From Bryobacteraceae bacterium (GTDB taxonomy: Bacteria; Acidobacteriota; Terriglobia; Bryobacterales; Bryobacteraceae): a stretch of DNA of 64,000 bases. The stretch's first letter is position 1; each line of letters opens with the position of its first letter. This document shows positions 16,419 through 43,500 of this stretch, piece after piece. A model generated the notes under the pieces. It was not told where the DNA came from. It made no database searches and saw nothing but the letters and a program-made list of their open reading frames with translations. Where the stretch lies: the NCBI GenBank assembly GCA_963714395.1, contig CAVQOO010000068.1, positions 18,728-82,727 of the forward strand, written 5' to 3'. The translations under genes were made by a program, and so were the position numbers.

Positions 16419-16710
16419 CTCTCCTCATCTTAATGTTCTGACGCGGCAGCGCGCGTGTCGGTTCAGAAACAACGCCGTGCAAGGAAAATGGTTCGCCATT
16501 GTCCCGGTACCGATGTTTCGCTCGGGAATGCCCGGCACCTGACCGGAGTCCCAGAAACTAAGTGGTTTGGGGGTGCTTTATGGCTTGGAACGTACATTCC
16601 GGCGGCGGCGGAAGGCTCCTCAGCTTTTCTTCCCATGCCCTCGGTACCGTTGGCAGACGCGCTCCTGGACCGTAGGGTTGAGAGGAACTCGGAGGAAAAG
16701 GAATTGTACT

Positions 16711-17379
16711 TCACGTACCAACTTGGACGATTGGCGATCGCGGCCCTTATCTGCGGCGGACTCGCCAGTGGGGTCGCCCCTGGCGATTGTCAGCAACGGC
16801 TCGATCGGTAGCCAGACCAACAACTCTTGCGAGGTGGCGGGAGTCAACAGCGGAAACTGCGATACACAAAACATCGACAAGCATCCCGCCTGGGCCAACC
16901 CATCGACGGGGTCGAACTGGGTTTCATTCGCCCAGACGGGGAACGATAACGGAGCCAGCTTCATTTCAAATGGAATAGACGTCGAGTTTTATCATCCCTT
17001 TGTGCTGCCAACGGATTGGGATGCGGCGGAGGGCTCCATCAGCGTCATGGGAGACGACACGGCGCAAGTGCGGTTGAACGGCGACGTGATCTACGATTTC
17101 GCGGAAAACAATGGCTATCCGACCTGCGCGCTCAATGGAATCGGATGCCTGGACCAGACCAAGCAGACCATCGATCTGACGCCGGAAATGTTCAATTACG
17201 GAGTCGGGAATTCGAACACCTTTACTTTTGTAGTGGCGCAGCGGGGCGGGGGCGGATACGGCTTGAACTATGCGGGTTCGGTGGATGGGTTCGCCACGCC
17301 CAATGAGGTTCCGGAACCCTCGACATACATGCTCATCGGAGCAGGTCTGATCGGGCTGTACCTGGCTCGCAGGAGCTAG
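16711..17379 (+). CDS. PEP-CTERM sorting-domain secreted protein, with a frameshift at the signal-peptide junction (~16780)
   Basis: The C-terminus VPEPSTYMLIGAGLIGLYLARRS is a canonical PEP-CTERM (PEP, TM helix, basic tail). A TTG/RBS at 16711 gives signal peptide ...LAIAALICGGLASGVA in a different frame from the mature part. Confidence 0.7.
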   Translation, partial: SRTNLDDWRSRPLSAADSPVGSPLAIVSNGSIGSQTNNSCEVAGVNSGNCDTQNIDKHPAWANPSTGSNWVSFAQTGNDNGASFISNGIDVEFYHPFVLPTDWDAAEGSISVMGDDTAQVRLNGDVIYDFAENNGYPTCALNGIGCLDQTKQTIDLTPEMFNYGVGNSNTFTFVVAQRGGGGYGLNYAGSVDGFATPNEVPEPSTYMLIGAGLIGLYLARRS

Positions 17380-23354: not shown

Positions 23355-23356
23355 TT

Positions 23357-23806
23357 GTGAATCCCGACATCACCAACCCGGACATCGTTAGTCCGGATAT
23401 TGTCAGTCCCGACATCGTCAACCCGGACATCGTCAGTCCCGACATCACGAATCCTCTCATCACCACCGCCGAGGTCTACAGCCCGACTATCACGAATCCC
23501 GACATCGTCAATCCGGACATCGTCAGCCCCGACATCAGCACAGTTGACATCTCAAGCCCGCAGATCGTAAGTCCGGACATTGTCAGTCCTGACATTGTCA
23601 GTCCCGACATCGTCAACCCGGATATCAGCACGTTCCAGATCATCAATCCGGATATCGTGAGTCCCGACATCGTCAGCCCCGATATTGTGAGCCCGGACAT
23701 CGTGAGCCCGGACATCGTCAACCCGGATATCACGGCTATCCGAATCGTCAGCCCGGACATTGTGAGTCCGGACATCGTGAGTCCGGACATCGGCAACCTG
23801 TCGTCA
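23357..23806. repeat. about 30 tandem 15-bp coding repeats encoding (S/N)PDIV pentapeptides
   Basis: Direct reading: ccggacatcgt(c/g)ag(t/c) units; protein NPDITNPDIVSPDIVSPDIVNPDIV... Confidence 0.9.
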
Positions 23807-26446: not shown

Positions 26447-29101
26447 TCAAATCGATTTCGGCCTGGATGATCTTGGCGAAGGTGCGAGGAACCGGGCCGA
26501 GCTTTCGAGCCAGCTCAGCGGCAATCGCCTGAGCTCTTGCCTCCTGGCCCAGACTCCAAATGTGAGATTGCGAGCGACCATGGCGATGCCTTCGTCATTG
26601 GTGCCCTCGAGCGCTTTCTGAAATGCAGCGATCGCCGCGCTCCGGTTCCCTTCCATGGCATGTGCTTCGCCGACCAGCGACCATTTCTTGGCGGCAAGCT
26701 CGGGAGTGCCGGCTTTCGCCTCGGCCTCAATCGCCGGGAGGAGGACCGCGAGGGCGTCCTGTGGGCGTCCCTGGTAGAGCGCCAGATCCGCTTCCCCCGC
26801 GGCGGCAAATGAGGCTCCCTGCTCATTAACCGTCTTCATCTGCTGATAAACCTGGCTCGCCTTATCCAGGCTGCCGAGCAACAATTGGGAAACAGCGTTG
26901 GCGAAGTAGCCCTTCATGTACTTCGGATTCTCGGCAATAACCGCGGCGGACTCCCGCGCGGCCGATTCGAATTCCCCGGCGTACAACGCATAGAGAGCCA
27001 CATTGTTACGGTACGGGATGTTCTTTGGATAGACCTCCAGCGCTTTCCGTCCCTCCTCGAGCGCCCGCTGCATGTCGCGCCGCAGGTAATACGCGTAGGC
27101 CAAGTTGCTGCGGCCGGTGGAATCCACGGGGAATTGCTTCACTAGCGCGGTGAATTCCTCGACAGCCCTGCCGGCTTCCATATTGACCAGGTAATATCCG
27201 CCACGAGTCCGGAAGCGCTCACGTTCGCTCATGCGATTGATGTGCGCCATCGACTGGCTGTAGAACTGGAGGGCGAGTTCGCGCTGTCCCAGATTGGCGT
27301 AAACGGCGGCGAGGCTCGAATAGGCGCTGCCGAATCCGGAGTCGATCTGGATGGCTTTCTTGTATTCCTCGATCGCCTGCTGCGCCTTGCCTGCAAACCT
27401 GAATTCCTGGCCCAGAGCATAGCTGTGCGCCGCTTCGATGTTTGTAGTGGTGTAGGTCTCGGCGGCCGCCAGTTTGGCGGATTCCACCGCCGAATCGCCC
27501 AGGGCCTTGCGCAGCGGTCCGGAGAGGAGGCCTACCTCGTTGAGGAAGTCCGCTTTCCCAGCAGGGGAGCTGTCGACTTTGGCGATCTCCTTTCCACTTT
27601 GCGGGTCCACCGCCCGGACTTCGATCAAGTACCGATTGCCGCTCTTCTCGAGTTTTCCCTCCAGAACAACGGAAATCCCCTCGCGGACGGCCACCAGGCG
27701 GGCTCCCGTGCCATCCAACTTGCCGCTCTTCGGATTCAGTTGCTCCACGAGGCGCTTGGCGCGGCCTCGGTCGTATGAATTGACGAAGGACGCGGCCTCC
27801 AGGGAAACACTCAGCGTCGATTCCACGGTTCCGTCAAACACAGGTTCTCCTGTGCCGTTGGTAAAGTCCGCGATGAGGAGTGTCACGATCCTGGGTACTC
27901 CGCCCTGCCCGGAGTCCGAAGGCCGGTTCAGCAAGTAGTATCCGCCGCCGGCAATCGCTGCCACTCCAGTCGCTCCCGCGATGATCCACTTACGACGTGA
28001 GGACGGCCCAGGAGGCGACACCGCGGCGACCGGCACCGAAGGCTTGATTGCCGTCGCAAAAACTGTCGGCATCTGCGAAGAAGTTCGCGGCGTGCGCGGC
28101 CGGCCCAGATAGACATCGAGGTCGCCAATGATGTCGTCCACCGTCTGGTACCGTGTGGCAGGATCCATCTCCATGGCATGGCCGACTATCGCATTCAGCG
28201 CCTCGGGAATGCTCGGATCCAATTCTATTGGCGGCCTTGCTTTTTCGCGGGTCCGGGCCACAAGAGAGCCGACCATCGTCTGCGACGGGAAGGGAACCTG
28301 CCCGGTCAGCATTTCAAACAGGATGACGCCGAGCGCGAAGATGTCGGCGCGGTGGTCGGCGCGCTGGCCCATGGCCTGTTCGGGCGACATGTAGTCCGGG
28401 GTGCCCATGATGACGCCGCTCCGCGTCATTCCGGTATTCTCCATCGAATGCGCGAGGCCGAAGTCCATGACGGCCACCCGCCCGCGGCCGTCCACCATAA
28501 TGTTCTGCGGCTTCAGATCGCGATGGATGACATTCTTGGCGTGGGCCGCGGCCAACCCGAGGCAGACCTCGCGGATGAGAGAGGCGGATTCCTCGGGAGG
28601 AAGCCTTCTTTCGCGCATAATGTCCGTCAGCATGCGGCCTTCGACGAACTCCATCGACAGGAAGCGGAGGGAGCCAGCCGTTCCCAGGTCATACACGCGC
28701 ACTACATTGGGGTGGGCGATCTGGCTCGTCAGGACTACTTCCTGCTTGAAGCGATCGAGCACCTGCCGCTGCGCGGCCAGTTCGGGGCGAATGGTCTTGA
28801 TTGCTACTTGCCGGTTCAGTTCGCGGTCCAATGCCTTGTAGACCGCACCCATGCCGCCCTGCCCTAAGAGCGATTGAATCTCATAACGGTCCGCCAGGAT
28901 GGCGCCCACCTCTAGCGAGGCCCCTTGCGGCGCATCGAAGTCGGCTTCGAAGTTGGAAATCCTCGTTTCGGCGGAAGACTGAAGCCCGATCGCGATGGTC
29001 TCAGAGCCGAGGCCTGGGGCAGTACCGCCGAACAGCGAACTGCATTTCCGGCACTTCTCGGCACCTTCCTCGTTGACAGTTTGACACTCCGGGCAGATCA
29101 C
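26447..29101 (-). CDS. Ser/Thr protein kinase with an N-terminal zinc-ribbon, one TM segment and C-terminal TPR repeats
   Basis: 884-aa ORF. MICPECQTVNEEGAEKCRKCS (zinc ribbon). Kinase motifs GQGGMGAVYKA, HRDLKPQNIMV, DFGLA, MGTPDYMSPEQ. TM segment IIAGATGVAAIAGGGYYLL. TPR-like repeats follow. The 3' end may really continue into ORF 26178..26450 (TPR-like) after a frameshift. Confidence 0.85.
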   Translation of the reverse strand: MICPECQTVNEEGAEKCRKCSSLFGGTAPGLGSETIAIGLQSSAETRISNFEADFDAPQGASLEVGAILADRYEIQSLLGQGGMGAVYKALDRELNRQVAIKTIRPELAAQRQVLDRFKQEVVLTSQIAHPNVVRVYDLGTAGSLRFLSMEFVEGRMLTDIMRERRLPPEESASLIREVCLGLAAAHAKNVIHRDLKPQNIMVDGRGRVAVMDFGLAHSMENTGMTRSGVIMGTPDYMSPEQAMGQRADHRADIFALGVILFEMLTGQVPFPSQTMVGSLVARTREKARPPIELDPSIPEALNAIVGHAMEMDPATRYQTVDDIIGDLDVYLGRPRTPRTSSQMPTVFATAIKPSVPVAAVSPPGPSSRRKWIIAGATGVAAIAGGGYYLLNRPSDSGQGGVPRIVTLLIADFTNGTGEPVFDGTVESTLSVSLEAASFVNSYDRGRAKRLVEQLNPKSGKLDGTGARLVAVREGISVVLEGKLEKSGNRYLIEVRAVDPQSGKEIAKVDSSPAGKADFLNEVGLLSGPLRKALGDSAVESAKLAAAETYTTTNIEAAHSYALGQEFRFAGKAQQAIEEYKKAIQIDSGFGSAYSSLAAVYANLGQRELALQFYSQSMAHINRMSERERFRTRGGYYLVNMEAGRAVEEFTALVKQFPVDSTGRSNLAYAYYLRRDMQRALEEGRKALEVYPKNIPYRNNVALYALYAGEFESAARESAAVIAENPKYMKGYFANAVSQLLLGSLDKASQVYQQMKTVNEQGASFAAAGEADLALYQGRPQDALAVLLPAIEAEAKAGTPELAAKKWSLVGEAHAMEGNRSAAIAAFQKALEGTNDEGIAMVARNLTFGVWARRQELRRLPLSWLESSARFLAPSPRSSRPKSI

Positions 29102-29162
29102 CTTCGTCGGATTCCAGAAGCGATACTGGATCTATTGAAGTTACTATCTTCCGTGCTGGCTA

Positions 29163-30950
29163 TCAAGCGGTGGATTTTGATACAACGGCGCCACCGCGAG
29201 GGGTACGGCGGACAACGACGGCGGTGAAGTCGTCCGACGCGGTGACCGAGCCGGCGAATGCAGCCACTTCGCGGGTCAGCAGATCCACCAGGTCGACCAC
29301 CGGGCAGGTGTGGTTGTCCTTGACCAGATTGAGAAGCCGGCCTTCGCCGAACTCTTCGTCGGTGCCTGTCTGCTCGGCTTCGGTGACGCCGTCGGTGTAC
29401 ATCATCAGGACATCGCCGACTTCCATCCGGCAGCAGTGTTGAGTGAAGGCATACTTCGGCAAAACGCCGAGCACGGGCCCTCCGTCGTCAAGACGAACCA
29501 CCTTGCCATTTGCGCGCACCAGAAGAGGCGGGTTGTGACCCGCGTTGCAGTATGTCACGTCACCGGTGACCGGATCGATCTCGCAAATGAAGAACGTGAT
29601 GAAGCGGTTACCGGGACAGGTGGTGGTAATACTCGAGTTCAGCCGGGTCGTGAGCGCTGCCATCTCGATCTTCTCTTCCAGCAGGACCTGAACGCGGGCC
29701 TGCAGGCCGGTCATCAGCAGGGCGGCGGGCATGCCCTTGCCGGCGACGTCGCCAACGAGGAAAACCTGCTTGCCGTCCGGGCGGAGGAAGAAATCGTAGT
29801 AGTCGCCGCCGACGCTGCGGCAGGCCTCGGTGAAAGCAGCAACATCAAGCCCGTCGATGGACGGCGCGGCGCCCGGCAGCAGGCTCTTCTGAATGTCGGC
29901 GGCCTGCTGCATATCGCGAGCTATGAGCAGGTCGTGTTTCTCGACCTCCAGCAGCCGCGCGTGCTCGATGCGGATGGCCGCGATATTGGCCATCACCGTC
30001 AGCAGGTTCAGATCTTCGGCAGTGAAGGGCCGGACCATGTGCGGCGAGTCGACATAGATGAGTCCGAGCACTGTGTCCTTGGTCTGGAGCGGGACAGCCA
30101 TCATGCTGCGGACCGCTTGCGCGACGATGCTGGCCTGGGCCCGGAGCAACTCGTCGAGCCGGACGTCGCGAACCAGCAGACTCTCCTTCTTGTTGAGGAC
30201 CTGGTCGCGGACAGTGTTGCTGATTTTGAAGCCTTCGCCCTTGGCCGCGCGAGTCTCCAATTGGCCGTTCTCAAGGATGAGCAGGACGCCGCGAGTAGCG
30301 CCGACAGCCTCCACGGCGAGATTCATGATGATTGGGAAGAGTTCGTTCAACGGCCTGTGGCCGGCCAGTTCCTGTCCCGCCCTCACCAGAGGGTGAATGC
30401 GCGAACCGCCGCCAGAGGACCCTCCCGATTGAGTGCTCACCAGCGACTTGCCGGCGCGCATGATGTTGTCCAAATTGGCGATGACGGTGGCGCCGGGCGC
30501 GATCTCCATCGGGGAGTCCACGAACTCCACGCTGCTGCCTCGATCAAGCTCCTCGCTCCTGAACTCGACCAGAAGTGAGCCCGCGGCGACGCGGTCGCCA
30601 GTGAGCAGCATCCGGCGGGCGGTGACGGCCACGCCGTTCACCTTGGTGCCGTTGCGGCTGCCCAGATCGACGACAGCCCAGGAAGAGCCGCTCTTCTCAA
30701 AGGCCAGATGATTCCTGGACAGTCCGGCATCCTCATGAAAACACAAGTCGTTATTGGGCGCACGCCCCAACGTGTAACGTGCCGAGTCGAGGGTTACGAC
30801 TCGGGTTTGTCCAGAAGGAGTGCGGATGTGGAGTTCCGACCTGGTCATGGGGGCTCCAATCAATGTAGCGCGTTCTATCGCCTGCATGACAGTTGCCTTC
30901 ACGATGGGGGACAATGGCCGGAGCGGCGCCGGCGGCGAAAGCTGGAACAA
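29163..30950 (-). CDS. FHA-GAF-PP2C (SpoIIE-like) serine phosphatase
   Basis: 595-aa ORF. FHA region YTLGRAPNNDLCFHEDAGLSRNHLAFEKSGSSWAVVDLGSRNGTKVNG. GAF-like middle. PP2C region GGDYYDFFLRPDGKQVFLVGDVAGKGMPAALLMTGLQA...MYTDGVTEA. Confidence 0.8.
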   Translation of the reverse strand: MFQLSPPAPLRPLSPIVKATVMQAIERATLIGAPMTRSELHIRTPSGQTRVVTLDSARYTLGRAPNNDLCFHEDAGLSRNHLAFEKSGSSWAVVDLGSRNGTKVNGVAVTARRMLLTGDRVAAGSLLVEFRSEELDRGSSVEFVDSPMEIAPGATVIANLDNIMRAGKSLVSTQSGGSSGGGSRIHPLVRAGQELAGHRPLNELFPIIMNLAVEAVGATRGVLLILENGQLETRAAKGEGFKISNTVRDQVLNKKESLLVRDVRLDELLRAQASIVAQAVRSMMAVPLQTKDTVLGLIYVDSPHMVRPFTAEDLNLLTVMANIAAIRIEHARLLEVEKHDLLIARDMQQAADIQKSLLPGAAPSIDGLDVAAFTEACRSVGGDYYDFFLRPDGKQVFLVGDVAGKGMPAALLMTGLQARVQVLLEEKIEMAALTTRLNSSITTTCPGNRFITFFICEIDPVTGDVTYCNAGHNPPLLVRANGKVVRLDDGGPVLGVLPKYAFTQHCCRMEVGDVLMMYTDGVTEAEQTGTDEEFGEGRLLNLVKDNHTCPVVDLVDLLTREVAAFAGSVTASDDFTAVVVRRTPRGGAVVSKSTA

Positions 30951-32932: not shown

Positions 32933-34378
32933 GTGCTAATTTTGAAGTTTGGCTCCGCTCACGAGGCGGTTTTCGTGCAGGTATTTCTACAAGGCAAAAT
33001 CCTGGGCGCCGACGGGTTTGTCGAGGCCCACGGAAGTGATCTTCAACAACTCGGCGGGAGTTGTCTCTATATTTCCCTGCTGAGCGAGGCGGTTCCGCGC
33101 GGCCTCCTGGACGCGCTTAAACTGTCGCCGGAGCTGCTGGGCTCCAGCGGCGGCGGCCAGTTTCTTGTCCTGCTGCCAGGCGAAATCCTCGCCGAGGCCA
33201 ATGCCTACCTGACTGAAGCGACGCGACGGCTCGCGGCGTTCTCCGGCAGGCGTTTGAGGCTGGTTTGGGCCTCGACGGAGAACCTGGGAGTATGGAGCGA
33301 CGTCCGGCGCCGTCTCGACGGCGAGATGGTCCATTGGAGCGGCCTGAACGCATTGGAGCCGGACGGATTGTTCGATCCTTTCGTTGACTCACTGCAGGGC
33401 GGCGAGTGGATGGGCAGCTTGTTCGAGAGTCTGCCGGACTCGGCCGCGGCGGTGCTCGATTTCGCAGAACCCGGCTTGCTGCGGCGCGCAGGCGATCCGC
33501 ACGCCGTGGCGACGCACCGGGCATTGAACGATGCCGGGGATGCGCCTGCCACGCTGAAGGACCTGGCCGAACGAGCGCAAGGGCGCAGCGCCTGGGGGAT
33601 TCTGCGAGGCGAAATCGACCAGTATGAGTCGCGGCTGCGGCAGGCACAGAGCGTCGAGGAGTACATGCCGCTGACGGCTTTCTTCAAGCCGTTTTTCACC
33701 GGAGAAGTTCAGGTTCTGTGCATGCAGGGCGCATTCTGGCGGAAGGTGACGGTGCTATCAGCCGGCGGCAACGGCTTTGCGGTGGCCGGTTCGTGGGACG
33801 CGCTGATCGAGTTTGCGCGGGAAATGCAGCGGTTGTATCACCGGACGGCGGAGGAAGTGCTGCGCGAGCAGGCTGGTCCGGAGGCGAAAACGCTCTCGAT
33901 GGGACTCGCCCTGGCCGCGACGGCGGATTCGGCCCCCGCGCCGGTGTGGGTAGAGGCAGGACGTCAATTGAGCGTGGCAAAGTCATCTTCTCGGGACTCT
34001 ATCTCGGTATTTGGCCGTGTTGTGGATTCAAAACAGCTCGCCGAAGCCTCGGATTTGAAGAACCTGATGGTTCGCCTGGTGGACGAGTTTGGGGCAAGCC
34101 CGCAATTCCTCGGGGAGTTGGGAGCGTTTTACCGCGAAACCGACCGGGTTCTGCCGGCACGCAACCAGCAGCGGCAGGCCGATGCGCAGCAGCGTCCTTG
34201 GCGGCTGCATCGCCGGTTGAACCGCGTGCTTGACTCGGAAGGTCGCCACCGTGATTTTCAAAAGGCTCGCGCCGCAGTGCAGGCAGCGTTCCTCACGCGC
34301 GGGCAGGGACAATTGAAGCTGAGGCCCTCCGGCCGCGTCGCCCTGGAATGGGCGCGGCTGGCCAAAGAGGCGGAATAA
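32933..34378 (+). CDS. Cas10-like large subunit (two degenerate palm/cyclase-like domains, no HD domain)
   Basis: GTG start 30 nt after the flotillin stop. ...LLGSSGGGQFLVLLPGE... (near 33140-33185) and ...LSAGGNGFAVAGSWDALIEFAREMQRLYH...TLSMGLALAA (near 33756-33900) mirror the Cas10 GGDD segment (GGDDllv.g.wd.v.ela..i...f...TiSaGi), with GGDD replaced by GGGQ and GGNG. Size of 481 aa. Position at the head of a csm2-3-4-5-like operon. Confidence 0.5.
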   Translation: MLILKFGSAHEAVFVQVFLQGKILGADGFVEAHGSDLQQLGGSCLYISLLSEAVPRGLLDALKLSPELLGSSGGGQFLVLLPGEILAEANAYLTEATRRLAAFSGRRLRLVWASTENLGVWSDVRRRLDGEMVHWSGLNALEPDGLFDPFVDSLQGGEWMGSLFESLPDSAAAVLDFAEPGLLRRAGDPHAVATHRALNDAGDAPATLKDLAERAQGRSAWGILRGEIDQYESRLRQAQSVEEYMPLTAFFKPFFTGEVQVLCMQGAFWRKVTVLSAGGNGFAVAGSWDALIEFAREMQRLYHRTAEEVLREQAGPEAKTLSMGLALAATADSAPAPVWVEAGRQLSVAKSSSRDSISVFGRVVDSKQLAEASDLKNLMVRLVDEFGASPQFLGELGAFYRETDRVLPARNQQRQADAQQRPWRLHRRLNRVLDSEGRHRDFQKARAAVQAAFLTRGQGQLKLRPSGRVALEWARLAKEAE

Positions 34379-34380
34379 TA

Positions 34381-35130
34381 ATGAGCGAAATCGAAGAGCA
34401 GAACCAGAATCTTCCGGAAGAAAATCCGGAACCCAGGCCGGAGCCGGCAGTGGAAGCTCCTCAGGCCGCCGAAGCGCCTGCTGCTGAGGCTCCAGTTGCC
34501 GAGGTTTCGCCGGCGGCATCGCCCGCGGAAGCTCCGGCTGCCGCCGCCGCACCGGCGGCAGGCGAACCTAGGCCGGAGCGTCCTCCCCGCGGCGAAAGAA
34601 GCGATCGCGGACCGCGCCCGGAACGAGGACCTCGCCCTGAGCGCGGTCCCAAGCCTGAACGCAGCGAGCAGCGCCCCGAGCAACGTGGCGGCGAACGTCC
34701 AGGCGGCGGCGACCGCGGTGGAGACCGAGGCAGACCTCCGCTTCGGGGCCGGGAAGGTCCGCGCCCCGGCGGACGCCCGCCCGAGCTGATGCTGGACATC
34801 GATCTCGAAAAGCTGATTCACGACAGCCTCTATCTGGACAACCAGGCCCACACCGTCGTGGTTCGCATGCGCGACATGGACTCGGGCACCCGCAGCCAGC
34901 TTCGCCGGCTGTTCAGCGCCACCCGCCGCGCCTGCCGCGCGGTCGAGTCCGAACGGCAGCACCACTTTGTGATGCTGCGGGCACGCCTGGCCTATACGAT
35001 TGCGCGCCATCAGTTGCGCAGCCTCGATCCGCTGGAAAAGCTTCTGCTCCAGGTCACGCGAAAGAATGACCCGCGCGGCTACGAGCGTTTCCGCGATCTC
35101 TTCGAGGCCATTGTGGCCTACAACGAGTAA
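34381..35130 (+). CDS. Cas11/Csm2-like small subunit candidate with a roughly 130-aa low-complexity Pro/Glu/Arg/Ala-rich N-terminal extension
   Basis: ATG immediately after the cas10-like stop. The N-terminus is repetitive (PERGPRPERGPKPE..., GGDRGGDRGRP). The C-terminal ~110 aa look alpha-helical (LEKLIHDSLYLDNQAHTVVVRMRDM...LRARLAYTIARHQLRSLDPLEKLLLQV...FRDLFEAIVAYNE) at the position where csm2 sits in III-A operons. Confidence 0.4.
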   Translation: MSEIEEQNQNLPEENPEPRPEPAVEAPQAAEAPAAEAPVAEVSPAASPAEAPAAAAAPAAGEPRPERPPRGERSDRGPRPERGPRPERGPKPERSEQRPEQRGGERPGGGDRGGDRGRPPLRGREGPRPGGRPPELMLDIDLEKLIHDSLYLDNQAHTVVVRMRDMDSGTRSQLRRLFSATRRACRAVESERQHHFVMLRARLAYTIARHQLRSLDPLEKLLLQVTRKNDPRGYERFRDLFEAIVAYNE

Positions 35131-35155
35131 GGGCCCAAACGAGGAAGGAGAATCC

Positions 35156-35989
35156 ATGAGTTCCCATACCGCCGATACGAAGCTCGGCCTGATCGGCAAG
35201 CTCCTGCTCGATGGCGAGCTGATTTGCGACACCGGCCTGCACATCGGTGCGGGCAAAGGCTCGCTCGATTTGGGCGGAGCCGACAATCCGGTCGTCAAGG
35301 ACGCTTTCGGGCGTCCCTACGTCCCTGGCAGTTCACTGCGGGGGCGCATCCGGGCGCTGCTCGAGCAGGCGCACGGCCACGCTGTCGCCTCCGATCTGGT
35401 CTACTTGTCGCGCCGCCGCGGACAGGAAGTCCGAATTCATCAGAGCGACGATCCGGGTGACGAAATCTGCCTGCTTTTCGGGCGCAATCCGGGCCGCATG
35501 GAGCGCGTTTCCGGAGATGCGCTGGAGCCCTCGTCGGCGACGCCAGCGAGGCTCACCGCCTATGACGCTCCGCTGGAGCTGGACTCGATTACAGTGCAGA
35601 TGCGCGAGAATCTCGACGACGAACTGACTGAGGTGAAGAGCGAAAACTCCATCGACAGGCTGACCGCGCAGGCTCTGGCACGCACATTGGAGCGCGTCCC
35701 GGCGGGGGCGAGGTTCCGGGTTCGGTTCGTGATCGACATCCTGTGCGCGGAGGACCGCGAACTGGTGTCGCCATTCGTGGCGGGCATTCGATTGCTGGAA
35801 GACGATTCGCTCGGGGGAGGCGGTTCCAGAGGCAGCGGCCGAGTGCGCTTCACGTCGTGGAAGGTCTCCTGGCGGAACAAGTCCTACTACACAGCCGCCG
35901 GCGCCGAGGCGACACTGGCCTCGGCCGGCACGACAGCCGAACTGCAAGCCGCGGTCGCCGATCAGGAATTCTCCGGACGCCTGGCCTAA
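35156..35989 (+). CDS. Cas7-group RAMP, Csm3-like backbone subunit
   Basis: RBS ggaaggag before the ATG. ...CDTGLHIGAGKGSLDLGGADNPVVKDAFGRPYVPGSSLRGRIRALLE... matches the Csm3 N-terminal signature, including the catalytic-loop Asp in G.DNP..KD and the PxxPGSSxKG motif. The C-terminal glycine-rich loop is LGGGGSRGSGRV. Confidence 0.7.
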   Translation: MSSHTADTKLGLIGKLLLDGELICDTGLHIGAGKGSLDLGGADNPVVKDAFGRPYVPGSSLRGRIRALLEQAHGHAVASDLVYLSRRRGQEVRIHQSDDPGDEICLLFGRNPGRMERVSGDALEPSSATPARLTAYDAPLELDSITVQMRENLDDELTEVKSENSIDRLTAQALARTLERVPAGARFRVRFVIDILCAEDRELVSPFVAGIRLLEDDSLGGGGSRGSGRVRFTSWKVSWRNKSYYTAAGAEATLASAGTTAELQAAVADQEFSGRLA

Positions 35990-37011
35990 TGAACCCCGCC
36001 CTGCTCGTTCGTCTCCGGCCCCTCACGCCGTGGCGCATCGGGAGCGATTCCGGCGCCCGCGAGCAGGCGTCCGCCGTGTATTCCAGCGACACTCTATTCT
36101 CGGCAGTATCCGGGGCATTCCAGCAGCTTGGCTGGCTCGAGGAGTGGCTCGGGGCCACAGTGCGGGGGGTCGAAGATCCCGCCGTGCGATTGACCAGTGC
36201 CTTTCCGTTCCAAAAGGGACTCCTGTATCTGCCGCCTCCCTCGGGGTTGTGGCCGCCGCCCGGAGAAAGCCGTGTGCGCTGGAAGGGCGCCCAACTGCTG
36301 CCCGCGCCGGTCCTGGCCGGACTGCTGCGCGGAGAGATGCCTGGCGAAGAAGAGTGGACCATTGATGGCCAGAGCGCTTGTCTCGTGCCCTCGCGACAAC
36401 GAGGGGCGGCCGGTCCGTATCGATTCCTGCGCCGCTCCCATGCGGCAGTCGACCGGCTTACCGGCGGCATCGCGGAGCCTTATTCCGTCGCTTGCACACA
36501 GTTCGCGCCTGAGGCGGGACTCTGGTGTGCCGCGGAGTTCTCTTCCCACACGGCATATGCGATCTGGTCGCCCAAACTACAGGCGGCGTTCCGGCTATTG
36601 GCCGACTCCGGACTCGGCGGCCTGCGGAGTCGCGGCTTTGGCCGTTCGCGGACCCCACTCTTCCAGGCGGGTACGCTTGCGGAATTGATCTTCGGGGCCG
36701 CGGCGCCAGTGTCTGCCGCCGCGCCTGCCGCATGGTGGCTCCTTTCGCTCTTCTCGCCTGCCGGTGACGACGCGGTCCATTGGGAACGGGGCAGTTACGA
36801 TCTCGTGACCCGCACCGGCCGCGCTGTTGACGGACGGCTGAAGCTGTCGACTCGCATGGTCCGCGAGGGAGGCGTCCTGGTTTCGGATAAGCCCTTGCGA
36901 GGCACGGCGCTCAATGCCGCTCCGCCCGAAGCGCCCCATCCATTGTGGCGCGCGGGTTTCGCCGTCGCCCTGCCGATCGCATGGTCCGGCGCTGGAAGGG
37001 GGGTGGCATGA
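35989..37011 (+). CDS. Cas5-group RAMP, Csm4-like subunit
   Basis: Start overlaps the csm3-like stop (TAATG). N-terminal ...PWRIGSDSGA...YSSDTLFSAVSGAF is Csm4-like. Glycine-rich loop GLGGLRSRGFGRS. Position after csm3 matches the III-A order. Confidence 0.6.
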   Translation: MNPALLVRLRPLTPWRIGSDSGAREQASAVYSSDTLFSAVSGAFQQLGWLEEWLGATVRGVEDPAVRLTSAFPFQKGLLYLPPPSGLWPPPGESRVRWKGAQLLPAPVLAGLLRGEMPGEEEWTIDGQSACLVPSRQRGAAGPYRFLRRSHAAVDRLTGGIAEPYSVACTQFAPEAGLWCAAEFSSHTAYAIWSPKLQAAFRLLADSGLGGLRSRGFGRSRTPLFQAGTLAELIFGAAAPVSAAAPAAWWLLSLFSPAGDDAVHWERGSYDLVTRTGRAVDGRLKLSTRMVREGGVLVSDKPLRGTALNAAPPEAPHPLWRAGFAVALPIAWSGAGRGVA

Positions 37012-38174
37012 CGCGCTACCGTCTCACAGTCTTGACGCCGATGCTGATCGGCGACGGCCAGAGATTGGCCCCGATCGATTACATGGTCTGGAAAGACCAG
37101 GTCAATGTGCTCGACCAGAAGAAGATCTTCCGGCTCCTGGCTAAAAGTCCGCGGCTGGACAGCTACCTGTCCCAAATCCGCCGGGCCGACAAGCTGGACT
37201 TCAACTCCTGGGGCGGCTACGCCCAGAACTATGCGCTGCGCCGCATTCCGCTCGAGTCCCCGGCCCTGGGCCGCGTGTTTGAGCGCACTCTGCCGGAGCA
37301 CCTCTTTCTGCCGACTTTCGCCACCACTCCCTCCGGGAGCCTCCATATCCCGGCCACCGCAATCAAAGGAGCGTTGAGGACAGCGCTGCTGACGCAACGG
37401 GCGACGAACTCCCATTGGGCACAGTTCTCTGAACGGTTGGAAGCCGCCGAACGGGCGCCCAGAAGTCCCGGCGAGATCCTGGAAGCGGCCGTTTTGGGTT
37501 CACAGGGGCAAGCCCGCACTCGGGGGTTCCTGCTGGCCGACTCGGAGCCGCGCCCCGCGGGCGGGCTGACTCGAATCTACCTGACCCGCACGGCCACCCT
37601 CGTCGATCGCGGCGGACGACTCGAACTTGGCTGGAAAACCGCGCCTCGCGGCACGCTGGACGGTAAGCGCGCCGCTGACGCAACGCCAGTCCTGGCTGAA
37701 ATGGCCATTCCGGGGAGTGTGTTCGAAGGCTCGTTCTCCGAGGCGCCATTTTTCCGCCGGACAGAGACCCTGCGCGCCCTGAACTGGAAGGAATCCCCCG
37801 GGGCGCTCCGCTATGCGGAAGCCTCAAACGCATGGGCCGCACGCTGTCTCGCCGCTCAAAGGATCTGGGCCGAGAAGGCCGCGATTCCGGCCGTCATCCG
37901 TTCACTCGATACCCTGGAAGCACGCCGCAAGGATCTGGAAGCCTCGCGCACTGGCTGCCTGGTCTGCTTGGGGTGGGGGACTGGCTATCTGCCCAAGGCC
38001 GCCGATCCGAATCCGGAAGATGAGGTCAAGGACAAAGTTCTGCGCTCGCTTCCGGTGATCGCGTCGGCCATTCGTACTGGCTTGCCCTTTCCCAAGACGA
38101 GGCGGATCGTATTCAGCGCCGATCAGCCGGCGACGCTGCCAGGCTGGGCGGCAATTCAGTTCGAACTCTCTTGA
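37008..38174 (+). CDS. Cas7-group RAMP, Csm5-like subunit
   Basis: ATGA overlap with the preceding gene. ...PSGSLHIPATAIKGALRTALLTQ matches the Csm5 P.IPGSS.KGalRt motif. Glycine-rich loop CLGWGTGY. Confidence 0.6.
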   Translation: MTRYRLTVLTPMLIGDGQRLAPIDYMVWKDQVNVLDQKKIFRLLAKSPRLDSYLSQIRRADKLDFNSWGGYAQNYALRRIPLESPALGRVFERTLPEHLFLPTFATTPSGSLHIPATAIKGALRTALLTQRATNSHWAQFSERLEAAERAPRSPGEILEAAVLGSQGQARTRGFLLADSEPRPAGGLTRIYLTRTATLVDRGGRLELGWKTAPRGTLDGKRAADATPVLAEMAIPGSVFEGSFSEAPFFRRTETLRALNWKESPGALRYAEASNAWAARCLAAQRIWAEKAAIPAVIRSLDTLEARRKDLEASRTGCLVCLGWGTGYLPKAADPNPEDEVKDKVLRSLPVIASAIRTGLPFPKTRRIVFSADQPATLPGWAAIQFELS

Positions 38175-38263
38175 AACACAGCGGAAAGCCCGATCATAGT
38201 AGTCTAGAAGGATAGTGAAGGGACACCAGTCCTTTCTTGTGGGCGGCTGTCAGCGTACCCAAC

Positions 38264-39169
38264 ATGTACAACGCTTTTTTCGGCTTTCGGGAAAATCCAT
38301 TCAACCTCAGCCCGGATCCCGCGTTCCTCTATCGAAGTCCGCAGCACGATGAGGCTCTCGCGAACCTGATCTACGGCGTTCACAGCCGGAAGGGGTTCAT
38401 TGTCCTGACCGGCGAGGTGGGTACAGGCAAGACCACTATGCTCGAGTGTCTCCGGGACTATCTGGAGGCCCAGTATATTGAGTTCGCCTTCATCTTCAAC
38501 TCCAGGATTTCGTCGGACCAGTTTTTCGAGATGATCGCCTACGATCTCGATCTCCGCTGCTCGCACAAGTCCAAGACAGAAGTCCTCTTTGCCCTCAATC
38601 ACCTACTGATCCAGCAGGCCAATCAAGGGCGCACCACGGTGCTAATCGTCGACGAAGCCCATAACCTCGAGTGGGATGTACTCGAGGAGATCCGGCTCCT
38701 GGGAAACCTGGAGAATCCGCGCCTCGGCAAACTCCTGCAGATAGTACTTGCCGGTCAGCCCGAGCTTGACCGGAAACTCGATGCCCCGAACCTCCGGCAG
38801 CTCAAGCAGCGCATCGTGCTCAGGTGTTCTCTATCTCCGTTCCAGCCGTCCGACACCGAAGCCTACATTCGAGCCCGGCTCGACAAGGCGGGCATGCCCG
38901 ATCAGAGCGTGTTTTCGGCTCCATTGATACGGGAGATTCACACGCGAAGTCAGGGGATTCCCCGCATTATCAATGCGCTCTGCGACAACATGCTCCTGAC
39001 GTGCTTCGCTCTGGAACGACGCGATGCCTCGGCTGAAATGCTCGAGGAGATCTGCAGGGACATGCGGCTCGAGTGGCCGGGGATGCCGCAAGTTCGTGGC
39101 GCACGAGGCGGATCGGATCGGCCCGGGTCTGTGGACACGACCGCTTCGCTGTCTTCTCACATGGACTGA
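38264..39169 (+). CDS. ExeA/GspA-like AAA+ ATPase (PEP-CTERM-locus ATPase-like family)
   Basis: MYNAFFGFRENPFNLSPDPAFLYRSPQHDEALANLIYGVHSRKGFIVLTGEVGTGKTTMLECL closely follows the ExeA N-terminal pattern and Walker A. Walker B is VLIVDEAHNL. Intact 301-aa ORF, 90 nt downstream of the csm5-like gene. Confidence 0.8.
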   Translation: MYNAFFGFRENPFNLSPDPAFLYRSPQHDEALANLIYGVHSRKGFIVLTGEVGTGKTTMLECLRDYLEAQYIEFAFIFNSRISSDQFFEMIAYDLDLRCSHKSKTEVLFALNHLLIQQANQGRTTVLIVDEAHNLEWDVLEEIRLLGNLENPRLGKLLQIVLAGQPELDRKLDAPNLRQLKQRIVLRCSLSPFQPSDTEAYIRARLDKAGMPDQSVFSAPLIREIHTRSQGIPRIINALCDNMLLTCFALERRDASAEMLEEICRDMRLEWPGMPQVRGARGGSDRPGSVDTTASLSSHMD

Positions 39170-39409
39170 TCTGGCTATCGAACGGAGACTCAGATAAATC
39201 CTACCAAAGTCCTAACATAGGTCTAAGTGTAACTTTCCATTCGCCTTAGGCGTAGTTAAGAGAAAGTACTGTGAGTAATAGTAGGATTAATCCTAAGAGA
39301 CCTGCCAATAGTTGCATCTTAGGCTAAGGAAGATCCCTTAGTCTGAGGGAATTGCCCACCTGCACTGTTCACTGCGGGCAAGGCAGACAAAACGAAGGTA
39401 AAACCTCAG

Positions 39410-39854
39410 ATGTCCAAGCTGCTTGGCATTAGTCTTATTTGTGCTACGCTCCTTTTGATTGGGCTTTCCGCTACTGCGGGAACGCTCCCAATTGGTACGG
39501 ATGCAAACTCTCTCTCCCTTGGCCGCGATTGCCTCCTCCCGAATCCCTGGGATGATAAGCTCTCCCTCGGCCCGATGCCTCCTCCCGAATCCCTGGGATG
39601 ATAAGCTCTTCCTCGGCCCGATGCCTCCTCCCAATCCCTGGGATGATAAGCTCTTCCTCGGCCCGATGCCTCCTCCCAATCCCTGGGATGATAAGCTCTT
39701 CCTCGGCCCGATGCCTCCTCCGAATCCCTGGGATGATAAGCTAGCAGGCCTTCTCCGCCGAATTTTGCGAACCAAAGCCGACGAGTTTCCCCCCTGGGGG
39801 GCAGCCTGTCGGCTTTCATTTTGCTTCCGATTATTATTGTGTAAGCCAAGCTGA
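39410..39854 (+). CDS. possible small secreted repeat protein (15-aa PNPWDDKLFLGPMPP units) running through the tandem repeat
   Basis: RBS-like aggtaaaacctcag before the ATG. The signal-peptide-like N-terminus MSKLLGISLICATLLLIGLSATAG is in ORF 39410..39601. Coding continuity through the repeat requires the 46-bp units to be 1-nt indel errors (ORF 39459..39854 then reads ...PNPWDDKLFLGPMPPPNPWDDKLFLGPMPP...). Confidence 0.3.
39530..39750. repeat. perfect tandem direct repeat, 45/46-bp unit, about 4.7 copies, no spacers
   Basis: Units gcctcctcc(c)(g)aatccctgggatgataagctct(t/c)cctcggcccgat begin at 39530, 39576, 39622, 39667 and 39712. The periods are 46, 46, 45 and 45, and the copies are otherwise identical. 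Confidence 0.9.
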
Positions 39855-40226
39855 CCGCGAAAGTGCCTGAGTCCGCTGATTGTCTACGGAGTAGTTGGCA
39901 TTTCTGCGACGCTGTATGTTTATCTCCTTACTCTCCTGCTCAAAGGGTATGCCCGTTCCTATTTCGGATTGCTCCTGTATGTCGTAGTCTTGACGCTGAC
40001 GACTGGTGATGGACATGGCAGTTTACAAGTCCGAGGGCTGGAGCAATCTTTTCCTGATCAGTGAGACGGCCCGATGGGTGTGCCCTGTATCTGGTTGTGC
40101 ACTCATTCGTATGGAAGGCGCTTTCATCCAAGCCGGGCCTGGGGTGGATCCGGCACTGGCTTATCGCAGTCAGCGTCCTCATCGTGGTTCGCAGCGTTGT
40201 ACTTCACCCACAGCGAAAAGGCATCG

Positions 40227-40514
40227 ATGTGGGTGCTGAGGACGATCAACATTATCAGCATTGCTGGCATGGTGCTGAACCTGATTCTCTGGACATTGCT
40301 GGTTCGCTACCGCAATACGGACCTCACATTGTTCCTGGTGACGAGCGGATTGGGAATCCAGGCTGCGATGGAGGCTGCGGCATGGTCGATGCGAAGCCTC
40401 AGCATCCGTAGCCTTTTTGGCGCTGCATACTATGTACAGATTCTCGGCCACTTGCTTTGCTTGCTTATCTGGATCATGGCCTTTCGCCGCAAGGCCCCAA
40501 GCTCCAAGGCCTGA
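40227..40514 (+). CDS. small hypothetical membrane protein
   Basis: Hydrophobic segments (INIISIAGMVLNLILWTLLV; ILGHLLCLLIWIMAF) within ORF 40074..40514. No family recognised. Confidence 0.3.
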   Translation: MWVLRTINIISIAGMVLNLILWTLLVRYRNTDLTLFLVTSGLGIQAAMEAAAWSMRSLSIRSLFGAAYYVQILGHLLCLLIWIMAFRRKAPSSKA

Positions 40515-43500
40515 CTACGGCGTGACGGTGTAGCTACCCGTCTGCGGTGAAGGACTGGTGAGTCCGGCTGAATCTGTGGCGTTCATCCAGATCGATTTGG
40601 TTCCCGTGAAGCCGGGGATGAAGGCGATATCGAGCATGACGGTGAGCGTGTTGCCCGAGGCGATCGTCCAGGAACCTGATCCGTACACCCGGCATTGGCT
40701 GTTCTGCACTGTCTGGGCGGCCCCGAGTGTCAAGGACGTGCTCAGCGCAGCGGCGTCGTCGGCCAGCATCACCTTGCCCGCGGCTATGTCGACTTGCAGG
40801 TAGCAGGCCTGATTGGCTTGCTGTACCGAGTTGATCAGGACGCGGGGCCAAAGGATATCGTGAGCTCCGTTGGCATCGGTCCAAGTCAATGTGAACGTCT
40901 GTCGCGCCCCGCTGGCAGCAGCAGGGGAAACGCTAACGGAGATGGGCGCTGCCGGCAGATTGCTCATGACATCGTACGTGCCCAATTGGGGCGCGGCGGA
41001 GGTGAGTCCGCCGAGATCAGTCGCGTTCATGAATACGGCCTTCAGTCCGTTGAACTTGGCTTTGAAGCGAATGTCGATATAGGCGCTGAGTGTGGAGCCG
41101 GTGGCCTGAACACTGGAACTCTGCATTTGTAAAGCGCATTGCGAGTTAGCGACAACGTCGGAGGTTCCCAATCGGCCCGCCTGCGACGGGCTGCCGGCAT
41201 CGTCGGCCAGGGTCACAAGCCCCGCGGCGCGGTCGATCACGAAGTAGCATCCGCCCGGAGCCTGCTGTGAAGAGTTGATCAGCACCCTGGCTGAGCTGAT
41301 GTCGTTGGCGCCATTGGCGTCGGTCCAGACAAACTGAAAAACCTGCCCGCCACCGGAACCGGTGGAGGGCGAAACAGAGACCGGAACCGGCGGTAGCTGG
41401 GCGCTGGCAGCCACCGTGTATGTACCCATCAGCGGAGTCTGGCTCAGCATTCCCGCCGTGTCGAGCGCGTTGGCCCAGAGGGACTTGGCGCCATTGAAGA
41501 CAGGTTTGAAGGAGAGATCCAAGCGGGCTACCAAAGTGCTCCCCAGGATCTGTAAGCTGGTTCCGCTTCCCCGCAGCGTGCACTGGCTATTGGAGGCGCT
41601 GGCCTGTGCGCCCGCCTGGACCGGACTCCAGGAGGCGCCGTCGTCGGCGGCCAACGCGACGCTGCCGGTGGCAGGTCTTACCTGGAGGTAGCAGCCCCAC
41701 GCGGCCGACTGCGCCGAATGGATCAGGACCTCCGCCCTCTGAATGTCCGCGCCGCCATTGAGATCGATCCAGGAGAATACGAACACCTGCTCCGACCCCG
41801 ACCCCGCGGACGGAGTCAGGGACGATGCATGAGGCGCCTGATTGACAGGAACAACGACCGTGTAGCTTCCCATCCAGGGAGAATCGCTGGTCGCGCCGGA
41901 AAGGTCCGTGGCATTAGCCCAGACGCTCTTGGCGCCGTTAAATGGACTCTTGAACGAGAACTGGAAGCTGACGCTCAGTTTTGTCCCGCTCAGCAGCAAG
42001 GAGCTTCCCGCCGTATGCACGGTGCACTGACTGTTGGACAGGGCGACCCCTGAACCCGCGGCAGCCGCACTCCATCCAGAGCCCGTGTCGTTGGCCAGCG
42101 AGACGGCCAGGGTCTGCCGGTCGAACGCGACATAGCAGCCCGCCAGCGAGGTCTGCGAGGAATTGACGAGGACTCTGACGGTCCTGATGTCCTGGGGGCC
42201 ATTCGCATCGGTCCACTCGGCCGTCAGCGTCGTTCCCGTTCCACTGCCCGAACTCGGGCTGACCGAGAGTGGGACTGGCGACATGTTGATGATGACGGCG
42301 ACTGAAAACGATCCGGTCTGCTGCCAGCCGCTGGTTGCCGCCGAAGCGTCTTCACCGGCCGTCCAGATTGTCCGGGCGCCGTTGAAACCCGGGAAGAAGG
42401 CGATTTCAATACTCCAGTGGACCAGTTGGCCTTCGACCGCGACAGTCACCCCGGCCGGGCGCATCTCACAGCGGCTGTTGGCGACAGTCTGCGATGAGCC
42501 GACCGCAGCCAAGAGCCAATCGCTACCGGCATCGTTGCGGAGGCGAAGTGTGGAGGTCCTCCTGTCCAGTTCCAGCAGGCATGCTCCCGAATCCTGGGCC
42601 ACGTTGTGGAAGCGCATCCTCAGGAGAACCAGGTCGGAGGCGCCATTGCTGTCGGCGTATGTGATCGTGAATCGCTGCAGCGCACCCCCTCCCGCCGAGG
42701 GCGTCAACTGAACGAACACCGGAGCTGTGTTGTTGTTCGCCATGGGCGGAAATAGTCCGAAATCGAGATACCCCGTTTGCGCACCAGATGCGTCCGTAGC
42801 GGATGCGTAGATCGACTTGACCAGCGGGTTGGACGAGGCGAAGATGATGTCGAAGCCTATTTGAAGCCCGTTGGCCGTAAAGGAAATCACGGTTGCAGCC
42901 GGGCGAAGCTGACAGTGGGAATTAGCCAGCGGCGCGGCCGTGCCTGGAGCGGCCGAGTACCACCCGGTTCCAGAATCGTTAACCAGCCTAAGCAGCCCCG
43001 CTGCCCTGTCGTACTCCACGGCGCAAGCGCCAGCCTCGACGGGTGAAGTTCCAACCAGCAGGCGGACCTTTGCCAAATCTCCGGCGCCGTCGGCATCGGT
43101 GGCGAGCACGGTAAAGACCGCACCGACACCTGACGCGGTAGAGAAAGTCGCGGAGGCGACATCGGGAGGCGTATTGGCCTTGTCGGGTACGATCCACGTC
43201 CCGCCGCTGACATACCCGCTTTCGGCTTCGTCCACGGCTCGTGCAGCCGCAGCGATGGAGCGGGAGCCGGCAAAGGCTTTTGTGAAAGACAGACTGAGCC
43301 GGATGGAGACGCTCGTGCCTCCAACGGAAACTGTTGAGGTTGCACCTGAGAGGGTGCAGGCAGCCCCGGAGCTCGACGATGCCGTGCCTGGCGTAATGGG
43401 GATTTCTGTCGCGCCGCCCTCAGGCAAGACCATCAACTGGCCGGAGGAACGGATCCAGCGGACACGGCAAGTCAGGGACGCTCCGAGCAGATCGCCTAAA

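Follow-up and report, generated by a model that had tools for sequence, protein, structure and literature searches.

As a rule, CRISPR-Cas modules are mobile defence genes with a patchy distribution. The exaptations documented to date are mostly tied to mobile elements, as in the CRISPR-associated transposons and the type IV systems found on plasmids. A 2025 update of the CRISPR classification describes three reduced type III subtypes, namely III-G along with III-H and III-I (PMC12669027). III-G, which is specific to Sulfolobales, and III-H, which is mostly archaeal and has Cas11 in place of the Cas10 C-terminus, keep an HD domain that appears active and have an inactive cyclase and a Cas7 that has lost its Asp, so that DNA is the predicted target of cleavage; in III-I, a fusion protein resembling Cas7-11 is present (PMC12669027). 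The complete 9.9-Mb genome of Candidatus Solibacter usitatus Ellin6076 was reported to be CRISPR-free with three cas genes, which were read in 2011 as a remnant (PMC3174227). Here, we investigated a csm gene cassette in a 64,000-nucleotide stretch of DNA, hereafter the window, from a Bryobacteraceae bacterium of the same group (assembly GCA_963714395.1, contig CAVQOO010000068.1, positions 18,728 to 82,727 of the forward strand). Open reading frames (ORFs) and their translations reveal five tightly packed, co-directional genes on the plus strand that encode a Cas10/Csm1-like large subunit, Csm2, Csm3, Csm4, and Csm5, followed by a sixth plus-strand gene for an ExeA/GspA-type AAA+ ATPase (Table 1).

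We found that the cassette is neither a decaying remnant nor a piece of an ordinary CRISPR locus. In our judgment the odds lean somewhat towards a complete, III-A-derived Csm operon that is selectively maintained, probably inherited vertically, and encodes an RNA-loaded complex that cleaves RNA. The III-A origin of the effector operon itself is close to certain, and what the complex does for its host can be said far more tentatively.

Profile searches, PDB matches, and fold comparisons all point to III-A. In NCBIfam, Csm3 scored 180.5 bits (cutoff 90), Csm4 109.5 bits over the whole cas5_csm4 model (cutoff 55), Csm2 39.9 bits (cutoff 30.6), and Csm5 39.0 bits over its N-terminal third only (cutoff 38.3). 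Cas10 reached 99.3 bits (E 2e-28) against the Cas10/Csm1 model, which is under the cutoff of 170 and covers model positions 490-750 only. Pfam recognized Cas10-Cmr2_palm2 at 32.1 bits (gathering score 27) and Csm2_III-A at 41 bits (gathering score 24.8), the latter over the same residues as the NCBIfam Csm2 match (~153-248). The Pfam families of repeat-associated mysterious proteins also exceeded their gathering scores, with Csm5 at 34 bits, and Csm4_C fell slightly under its own (22.9 vs 25.9). PADLOC called Cas10, Csm2, Csm3, Csm4 (E 9e-22), and Csm5 (E 2e-16). The best PDB match of Csm3 was a Csm3 chain, 4qts_C (E 1.3e-40), in which GGTDNPVIRD aligned to the GGADNPVVKD of the cassette protein. 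This motif, including its Asp, is at least 95% conserved among 71 sequences; we take the Asp to be the catalytic residue, by its correspondence to D33 of S. thermophilus Csm3. A preliminary description of this DNA, made by reading the sequence, had proposed the same five subunits in the order cas10-csm2-csm3-csm4-csm5. Every peptide string that it quoted is present in the translations, and the profile matches are far beyond what chance resemblance of motifs would give.

The Csm2 protein has an unusual layout. Its N-terminal ~130 aa form a disordered tail with abundant P/E/A/R/G, and a highly conserved C-terminal domain of ~113 aa follows. Across the family the tail has a median length of 118 aa and low complexity, acidic at first and then R/G/D/E/P-rich, and the C-terminal domain is 80-88% identical. 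A further low-complexity segment is seen in the Csm4 of some relatives, in the subclade of loci L044, L045, L046, and L076, where ~150-200 aa of acidic, P/A/E-rich sequence are inserted between the N- and C-terminal domains (for example, in the csm4 gene at 12789-14336 of L044). Disordered segments are thus a recurrent trait of this cassette family.

How widespread is the cassette? The Cas10-like protein has 1418 significant relatives, and when each GTDB species was scanned through one genome, relatives were confirmed in at least 530 of these species-level genomes. Names within Acidobacteriota are attached to 76 of the 80 best loci, and resolve to Bryobacterales wherever a finer label exists; the other 4 are metagenome-assembled genomes with discordant labels. 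Some family members are already labelled Csm1 in IMG. The five genes occur in the same order, with intact reading frames, at all 62 loci that extend at least 5.6 kb past the cas10 start, where they span 4.9-5.6 kb. Even the most divergent full-length representative, at 36% identity, has the same six-gene layout. The cassette is therefore a family feature of Bryobacterales rather than an isolated oddity.

The genes are also under selection. Pairwise ratios of nonsynonymous to synonymous divergence (dN/dS) were 0.02-0.16 for all six genes, except for two Csm4 comparisons at 0.20 and 0.33. The window Cas10 gave 0.09-0.11 against its two closest relatives, with dS near saturation (~1.4-1.9) for the window pairs. 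All five csm genes are under strong purifying selection. Within each pair, synonymous divergence was broadly alike for the cas genes and the ATPase gene. Pairwise identities of Cas10 correlated with those of Csm3, Csm4, and Csm5 (r = 0.86-0.91) and with those of the ATPase (r = 0.68). This pattern suggests that the cassette has probably been inherited vertically.

The large subunit is a reduced Cas10. It consists of a minimal Palm1, a linker, Palm2, and the C-terminal helical domain D4. A family profile aligns to Csm1 at residues ~254-354, the start of Palm1, and at ~500-728, which comprise Palm2 and D4; the HD domain of Csm1 and the region that separates its Palm domains have no counterpart. 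The protein begins at the equivalent of Csm1 residue 254, and no HD nuclease was matched in Pfam, NCBIfam, or PDB alignments. The AlphaFold2 model (mean predicted local distance difference test score, pLDDT, of 65) presents reasonably modelled Palm domains and a minimal ferredoxin-like N-terminal domain. When this model was searched against the PDB with Foldseek, the top matches were all Csm1 chains, with E values down to 7e-15. In a library of 1.84 billion representative proteins, 54 representatives matched at E <=1e-30, none longer than 530 aa. The next tier consisted of canonical Cas10 proteins of ~760-820 aa with 26-31% identity. By these sequence comparisons, the mini-Cas10 family is a discrete group.

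Most members of this group keep the residues of the cyclase. Among 81 Cas10 sequences, the Palm2 motif reads GGDDF in 57, GGDEF in 18, AGD[DE]F in 2, and GGNDF in 1, so that the acidic motif GGD[DE] or AGD[DE] is retained in 77. Both acidic residues are lost in the remaining 3, namely the window protein (GGNG) and its two closest relatives (GGHG and GGGG). The window protein also has RGE where RGD is expected. We then asked how far this clade has diverged elsewhere. Of 85 Cas10 positions that are near-invariant (conserved in at least 95% of the other 78 sequences), the window clade has changed 5 and kept 80. The changes affect the Asp of the first strand (RGD to RGE), the first Asp of GGDD, an Arg of Palm1 (to Ser), and two aromatic residues, and thus include both acidic positions of Palm2. 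Because only five positions changed and the scaffold was retained, the sequences indicate a targeted loss of cyclase chemistry rather than decay. The loss is specific to the narrow lineage of the window, since most relatives have GGDD or GGDE.

These data bear on whether the cassette is simply a non-functional relic left after a CRISPR locus was lost, as was proposed in 2011 for the orphan cas genes of Ellin6076 (PMC3174227). Three of five consecutive locus tags in that genome would fit the cassette and may correspond to it. The lack of an array and of adaptation genes, the truncated Cas10, and the missing GGDD of the window lineage would all be expected of a relic. However, dN/dS values for the five genes are mostly in the low range given above, even for the Cas10 of the lineage without GGDD, the reading frames are intact in every complete locus, the promoter is conserved, and the window clade retains nearly all of the near-invariant Cas10 positions. 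The selection data already contradict a relic, and we consider it very improbable. The preliminary description had called the cassette degenerate. That word suits Cas10, which has shrunk, lacks the HD domain, and in this lineage has lost GGDD, but it does not suit the other four genes, and purifying selection acts on all five.

Near the cassette, the rest of a CRISPR-Cas system is absent. No CRISPR array was detected in the window by Tandem Repeats Finder, a direct-repeat search, Rfam (at gathering thresholds over the whole window and at E up to 1 around the locus), or a mini-array search, which means none within ~33 kb upstream or ~25 kb downstream of the cassette. Likewise, a k-mer scan that recovered a synthetic array as positive control found no array in 1.29 Mb around 80 related loci, nor at loci L081 and L082 (±10 kb of 82 loci in all). 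No cas6, cas1, cas2, or CARF gene was identified by Pfam among ~48 ORFs of the window, with ORFs shorter than ~100 aa not systematically scanned. Cas6, Cas1/Cas2, and CARF/SAVED proteins are also absent from the recurrent flank clusters of the related loci and from the precomputed Pfam annotation of L081 and L082. The genes that surround the cassette in the window (SelA, PEPCK, LeuA-like, carbonic anhydrase, histidine kinase, Ser/Thr kinase, and PP2C phosphatase) are ordinary chromosomal genes, and no relatives were found in the viral contigs of IMG/VR. The absence of an array, Cas6, Cas1/Cas2, and a CARF-type effector from the window, which the preliminary description had pointed out, is thus borne out, and no canonical array lies just beyond the cassette either.

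Could the cassette nonetheless be an ordinary III-A interference module? In this case it would act in antiviral defence, cutting target RNA with CRISPR RNAs (crRNAs) supplied in trans from distant arrays and processed by a Cas6 encoded elsewhere or by a host RNase. All five effector subunits are intact and the catalytic Asp of Csm3 is conserved, in keeping with such a role. There is precedent for maturation of this kind, since type III systems without cas6 are matured by host RNase E in Synechocystis. Our survey of arrays covered 64 kb of the source genome and ±10 kb of the related loci, and is compatible with more distant sources. However, modules for defence tend to be distributed patchily and to lie in islands, whereas this block is confined to one order, is widespread there, has fixed synteny and housekeeping neighbours, and evolves under strong purifying selection. 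Moreover, it is not accompanied by a CARF/SAVED effector, though most members retain the cyclase residues, and no relatives turned up in viral contigs. One complete genome of the group, that of Ellin6076, was also reported to lack CRISPR altogether, with cas genes that may correspond to the cassette (PMC3174227). We regard supply in trans as unlikely on balance, yet as an explanation that deserves to be taken seriously.

The only gene that consistently accompanies the csm operon is the ATPase gene, which follows csm5 in 49 of the 61 loci with enough downstream sequence. The protein matches Pfam AAA_22 (95 bits) and, over its full length, NCBIfam TIGR03015 (287 bits, E 1.4e-85), the latter below the equivalog cutoff of 324.5. 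Its Walker A and B motifs are conserved. It is better conserved than Cas10 both in identity to the window proteins (69-87% vs 43-80%) and in mean pairwise identity (76% vs 56%). There was no sequence match in the PDB, and no nucleotide-sensor domain was recognizable in Pfam or NCBIfam. A fold search returned class-level likeness to AAA+ proteins only, with Cdc6/ORC, RuvB, and TnsC as neighbours (template modelling (TM) score <=0.41 and root-mean-square deviation ~10-13 Å among the top matches). Genes farther upstream and downstream vary between clades, so that the csm-ATPase adjacency is the sole conserved neighbourhood. The flotillin/SPFH gene directly upstream of the window cassette is found at 0 of 80 related loci and can be dismissed as a partner, as can the upstream Ser/Thr kinase and FHA-GAF-PP2C genes, which are not conserved neighbours. 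Of the flotillin-cas-ATPase arrangement that had drawn attention initially, the ATPase is therefore a conserved partner and the flotillin is incidental.

The conserved ATPase raises the possibility that the Csm complex is mainly an RNA-triggered sensor or scaffold, whose output passes through the ATPase, either by recruitment, as with TnsC in CRISPR-associated transposons, or through a nucleotide signal, and not by RNA cleavage itself. Such a role could explain why the csm5-ATPase adjacency is conserved and the ATPase varies less than Cas10, and why cyclase residues persist in most Cas10s with no CARF/SAVED gene nearby. The model neighbours of the ATPase also include DNA-bound AAA+ proteins. 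Several findings run counter to it. The ATPase gene apparently has a promoter to itself and does not adjoin csm5 in 12 loci. The fold matches of the ATPase stay at the level of the class, and it has no recognizable domain to sense a nucleotide. A gene for a secreted repeat protein often follows, and the ATPase may belong with that gene instead. Finally, the window lineage lost the cyclase residues and yet keeps both the operon and the ATPase. We therefore think it improbable that signalling through the ATPase is the main output, and clearly less probable than antiviral interference with borrowed crRNAs.

How might a selectively maintained Csm operon work without an array? From the known Csm complexes, we infer complex assembly, RNA guidance, and RNA cleavage, and from the neighbouring gene a role for the ATPase. 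The five proteins and a guide RNA would together form a Csm-type ribonucleoprotein, with Csm4 and Cas10 at the 5' end of the guide, a filament of Csm3 and Csm2 along it, and Csm5 capping its 3' end. The complex would pair with complementary RNA, and Csm3 would cut the paired RNA. In most family members, target binding would probably also trigger synthesis of a nucleotide signal through the retained Palm residues. Since there is no CARF/SAVED receptor nearby, any such signal would need some other receptor. In the window lineage, nucleotide synthesis is predicted to be lost, and RNA binding, RNA cleavage, and any step coupled to the ATPase are predicted to remain. By analogy with characterized Csm complexes, RNA-guided RNA cleavage is fairly probably the core activity.

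What this activity serves is a more tentative matter. For the guide, we favour an RNA that the host encodes, or one that is at least fixed and non-adaptive, and for the role, surveillance or regulation of RNA at the level of the host over classical adaptive immunity. We put a CRISPR-independent role of this kind at rather less than an even chance. In its fullest form, the proposal is that the cassette is a domesticated, vertically inherited core machine of the whole order: a Csm ribonucleoprotein with a minimal Cas10 and an RG-rich Cas11 tail, guided by a non-CRISPR RNA of the host, cleaving or sensing endogenous transcripts for regulation or surveillance, and coupled to the ExeA-type ATPase. 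Taken as a whole, this combination is possible but doubtful. The broader suggestion of the preliminary description, that a type III effector complex was retained or co-opted outside a canonical CRISPR context, is supported by the intact subunits, the selection on them, and the lack of an array nearby.

Several points weigh against a maintained complex with a guide of its own. The mean pLDDT of the Cas10 model is only 65, with D4 modelled poorly. Vertical inheritance is deduced from taxonomic restriction and correlated divergence. Near the locus, Rfam searches at E up to 1 gave no candidate for a guide RNA, and blastn of the upstream, middle, and downstream spacers recovered conservation of promoters and untranslated regions and coding repeats only. 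The AT-rich spacer that follows the ATPase gene (39170-39409) folds no better than shuffled sequence (z = -1.26). Distant copies of an array or of cas6 are possible beyond the DNA that was searched, and type III loci that have no array and use crRNAs from elsewhere are a familiar case, with most III-B, III-C, III-E, and III-F loci lacking arrays (PMC12669027). Lastly, the functional link between the ATPase and the csm genes comes down to synteny, because the ATPase gene has an apparent promoter of its own and is missing beside csm5 in 12 of 61 loci.

Table 1. Features of the csm cassette and its immediate surroundings, in coordinates of the window
Feature	Position	Strand	Basis
Extended -10 promoter element of the csm operon, TGcTAATTT	32934..32942	+	Consensus and conservation; putative function
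Shine-Dalgarno-like GAGG, 8 nt ahead of the GTG start	32963..32966	+	Conserved ...CTGAGGC... just upstream in related loci
Mini-Cas10 (Csm1-like large subunit), 467 aa	32975..34378	+	Pfam, NCBIfam, family profile, Foldseek
Csm2/Cas11 small subunit, 249 aa	34381..35130	+	Pfam, NCBIfam
Csm3 (Cas7 backbone subunit and RNase), 277 aa	35156..35989	+	NCBIfam, PDB match
Csm4 (Cas5-type subunit), 340 aa	35989..37011	+	NCBIfam, PADLOC
Csm5 (Cas7-like cap subunit), 388 aa	37008..38174	+	NCBIfam, PADLOC, Pfam
Promoter-like site between csm5 and the ATPase gene	38171..38200	+	Consensus scan, TTGAAA-18-CATAGT; putative
ExeA/GspA-type AAA+ ATPase (AAA_22), 301 aa	38264..39169	+	Pfam, NCBIfam
Small signal-peptide and tandem-repeat gene, frameshifted	39410..39854	+	Tandem Repeats Finder, direct-repeat search, translations; membership of the system uncertain

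The packing of the operon can be read directly in the DNA, as the preliminary description had stated. The cas10/csm2 junction is TAATAATGAGCG, with a gap of 2 nt, and csm2 and csm3 are separated by a 25-nt spacer that includes GGAAGGAG. The csm3/csm4 junction, TAATG, overlaps by 1 nt, and the csm4/csm5 junction, ATGA, by 4 nt. The start of the cas10-like gene had been placed at GTG 32933, 30 nt from the upstream gene. This codon lies inside the conserved extended -10 box; nearly all of the related loci compared have a TGTGCTAGATT-type box ~41 nt upstream of their cas10 gene. Most of the homologues sampled begin at the equivalent of GTG 32975 (VQVFLQGK), which is preceded by GAGG. For these reasons the gene most likely starts at GTG 32975, and the gap to the SPFH gene is then ~72 nt. 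The range 32933-39169, previously given for a five-gene cassette, does hold the cassette, but its end is the stop of the ATPase gene, which thus lies within the range as well. The ATPase gene likely starts at ATG 38264 (MYNAFFGF). Between csm5 and the ATPase gene, an extended -10 box of the TGTTAGAAT type is present at most related loci; in the window, only the weaker consensus match listed in Table 1 occurs there. A 346-aa ORF on the minus strand (34258-35298) with high GC content at third codon positions lies antisense to the GC-rich, low-complexity tail of Csm2. Equivalent antisense ORFs occur at other loci and cluster together, and we discarded this apparent family as an artefact of composition.

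The gene that follows the ATPase encodes a signal peptide and 15-aa repeats of the PPPNPWDDK type, in 45-nt units that are 96% identical (39512-39742). One unit of 46 nt shifts the frame, which makes the gene a pseudogene or reflects an indel in the assembly. The five 45-nt units were considered as a degenerate array or a source of guides and were rejected: they have no unique spacers, lie after a signal peptide, and are coding. A similar repeat gene stands 260-570 nt past the ATPase gene at 20 of 45 related loci, the most divergent one (L081) among them. In all 20, the period of the homologous repeats is divisible by 3 and they encode PPPDP[WLM]-type peptides, which also argued against an array. 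Elsewhere in the window (2347-5348, minus strand), a CarboxypepD_reg and OMP_b-brl_4 outer-membrane beta-barrel protein is split over the ORFs 4749-5348, 4360-4842, and 2347-4338. This split suggests frameshifts or assembly indels, which bears on how much weight the frameshift in the repeat gene deserves.

Farther downstream lie a small membrane protein (40074-40514, plus strand) and a 1730-aa protein with DUF7948 and SBBP beta-propeller repeats (40515-45707, minus strand). Both recur downstream of the ATPase in several clades, for example at loci L004-L006, L009, L020, L021, L023, L027, and L028. A protein encoded at 16567-17379 has a C-terminal PEP-CTERM sorting motif, so an exosortase system in this genome is probable, which could be relevant to what the TIGR03015-like ATPase does. 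On the minus strand at 26447-30950, directly upstream of the SPFH gene, an 884-aa Ser/Thr protein kinase that has TPR repeats adjoins an FHA-GAF-PP2C (SpoIIE-type) phosphatase of 595 aa. The pair looks like a phospho-signalling unit and is not kept beside the csm operon in other genomes. Another repetitive gene, the ORF 23357-24403, contains ~27 tandem copies of a 15-nt unit (23344-23823) that encodes an (S/N)PDIV-type pentapeptide, with weak Extensin-like and GLTT Pfam matches only.

Why does an array-less csm operon matter? An intact operon that is found, with fixed synteny, across what appears to be one soil-dominant bacterial order, without an array, Cas6, adaptation genes, or a known downstream effector, is a good candidate for exaptation of a class 1 effector outside defence. 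If the cassette is indeed domesticated, it would represent RNA-guided regulation that is independent of arrays, spacer acquisition, and Cas6. It also offers a system in which to ask which RNA guides Csm without CRISPR, what a Cas10 of two Palm domains and D4 does, and whether ExeA-type AAA+ ATPases couple to type III complexes. Members with and without cyclase residues provide a built-in separation-of-function experiment.

The family appears to be undescribed as a distinct array-less, order-wide variant, although its genes are already recognizable as cas genes. Beyond the 2011 remark on Ellin6076, we found neither a Bryobacterales cassette nor a link between an ExeA-type ATPase and type III systems in the literature searched, which left out most subscription journals. 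The accessible text and supplements of the 2025 classification contain no mention of Acidobacteria (PMC12669027). The cassette matches neither III-G nor III-H nor III-I. What it has in common with these subtypes is evolution by reduction and the loss of partners for cyclic oligoadenylate signalling, and, in the window lineage, replacement of the catalytic residues of the Palm domains. In contrast to III-G and to III-H, the arrangement in the cassette is the reverse, with the HD domain absent and the Asp of Cas7 conserved, and most family members keep GGDD or GGDE.

The closest relatives are the III-A Csm systems of Staphylococcus epidermidis, Streptococcus thermophilus, and Thermococcus onnurineus, which share the five subunit families, the gene order, and the catalytic Asp motif of Csm3. 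Unlike these systems, the cassette has a Cas10 of ~467 aa instead of ~750-820 aa, without the HD nuclease and the inter-Palm segment, and a Csm2 with a disordered N-terminal tail of ~120-130 aa. Its locus has no array, cas6, cas1/2, or csm6/CARF gene; it occurs in a single bacterial order and has an ExeA-type ATPase gene linked to it, and the window lineage has lost GGDD. That ATPase shares a full-length match and the Walker A/B motifs with the ExeA/GspA-type ATPases and the ATPases of PEP-CTERM loci (AAA_22, TIGR03015). In contrast to them, it scores below the family cutoff and stands beside a csm operon and a small secreted repeat-protein gene rather than in a secretion, exopolysaccharide, or PEP-CTERM/exosortase locus. 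The array-less III-B, III-C, and III-F loci are likewise effector-only, with no array of their own and no adaptation module. However, those loci are patchy defence modules that co-occur with array-bearing systems, whereas the Bryobacterales cassette looks lineage-wide, syntenic, and chromosomal.

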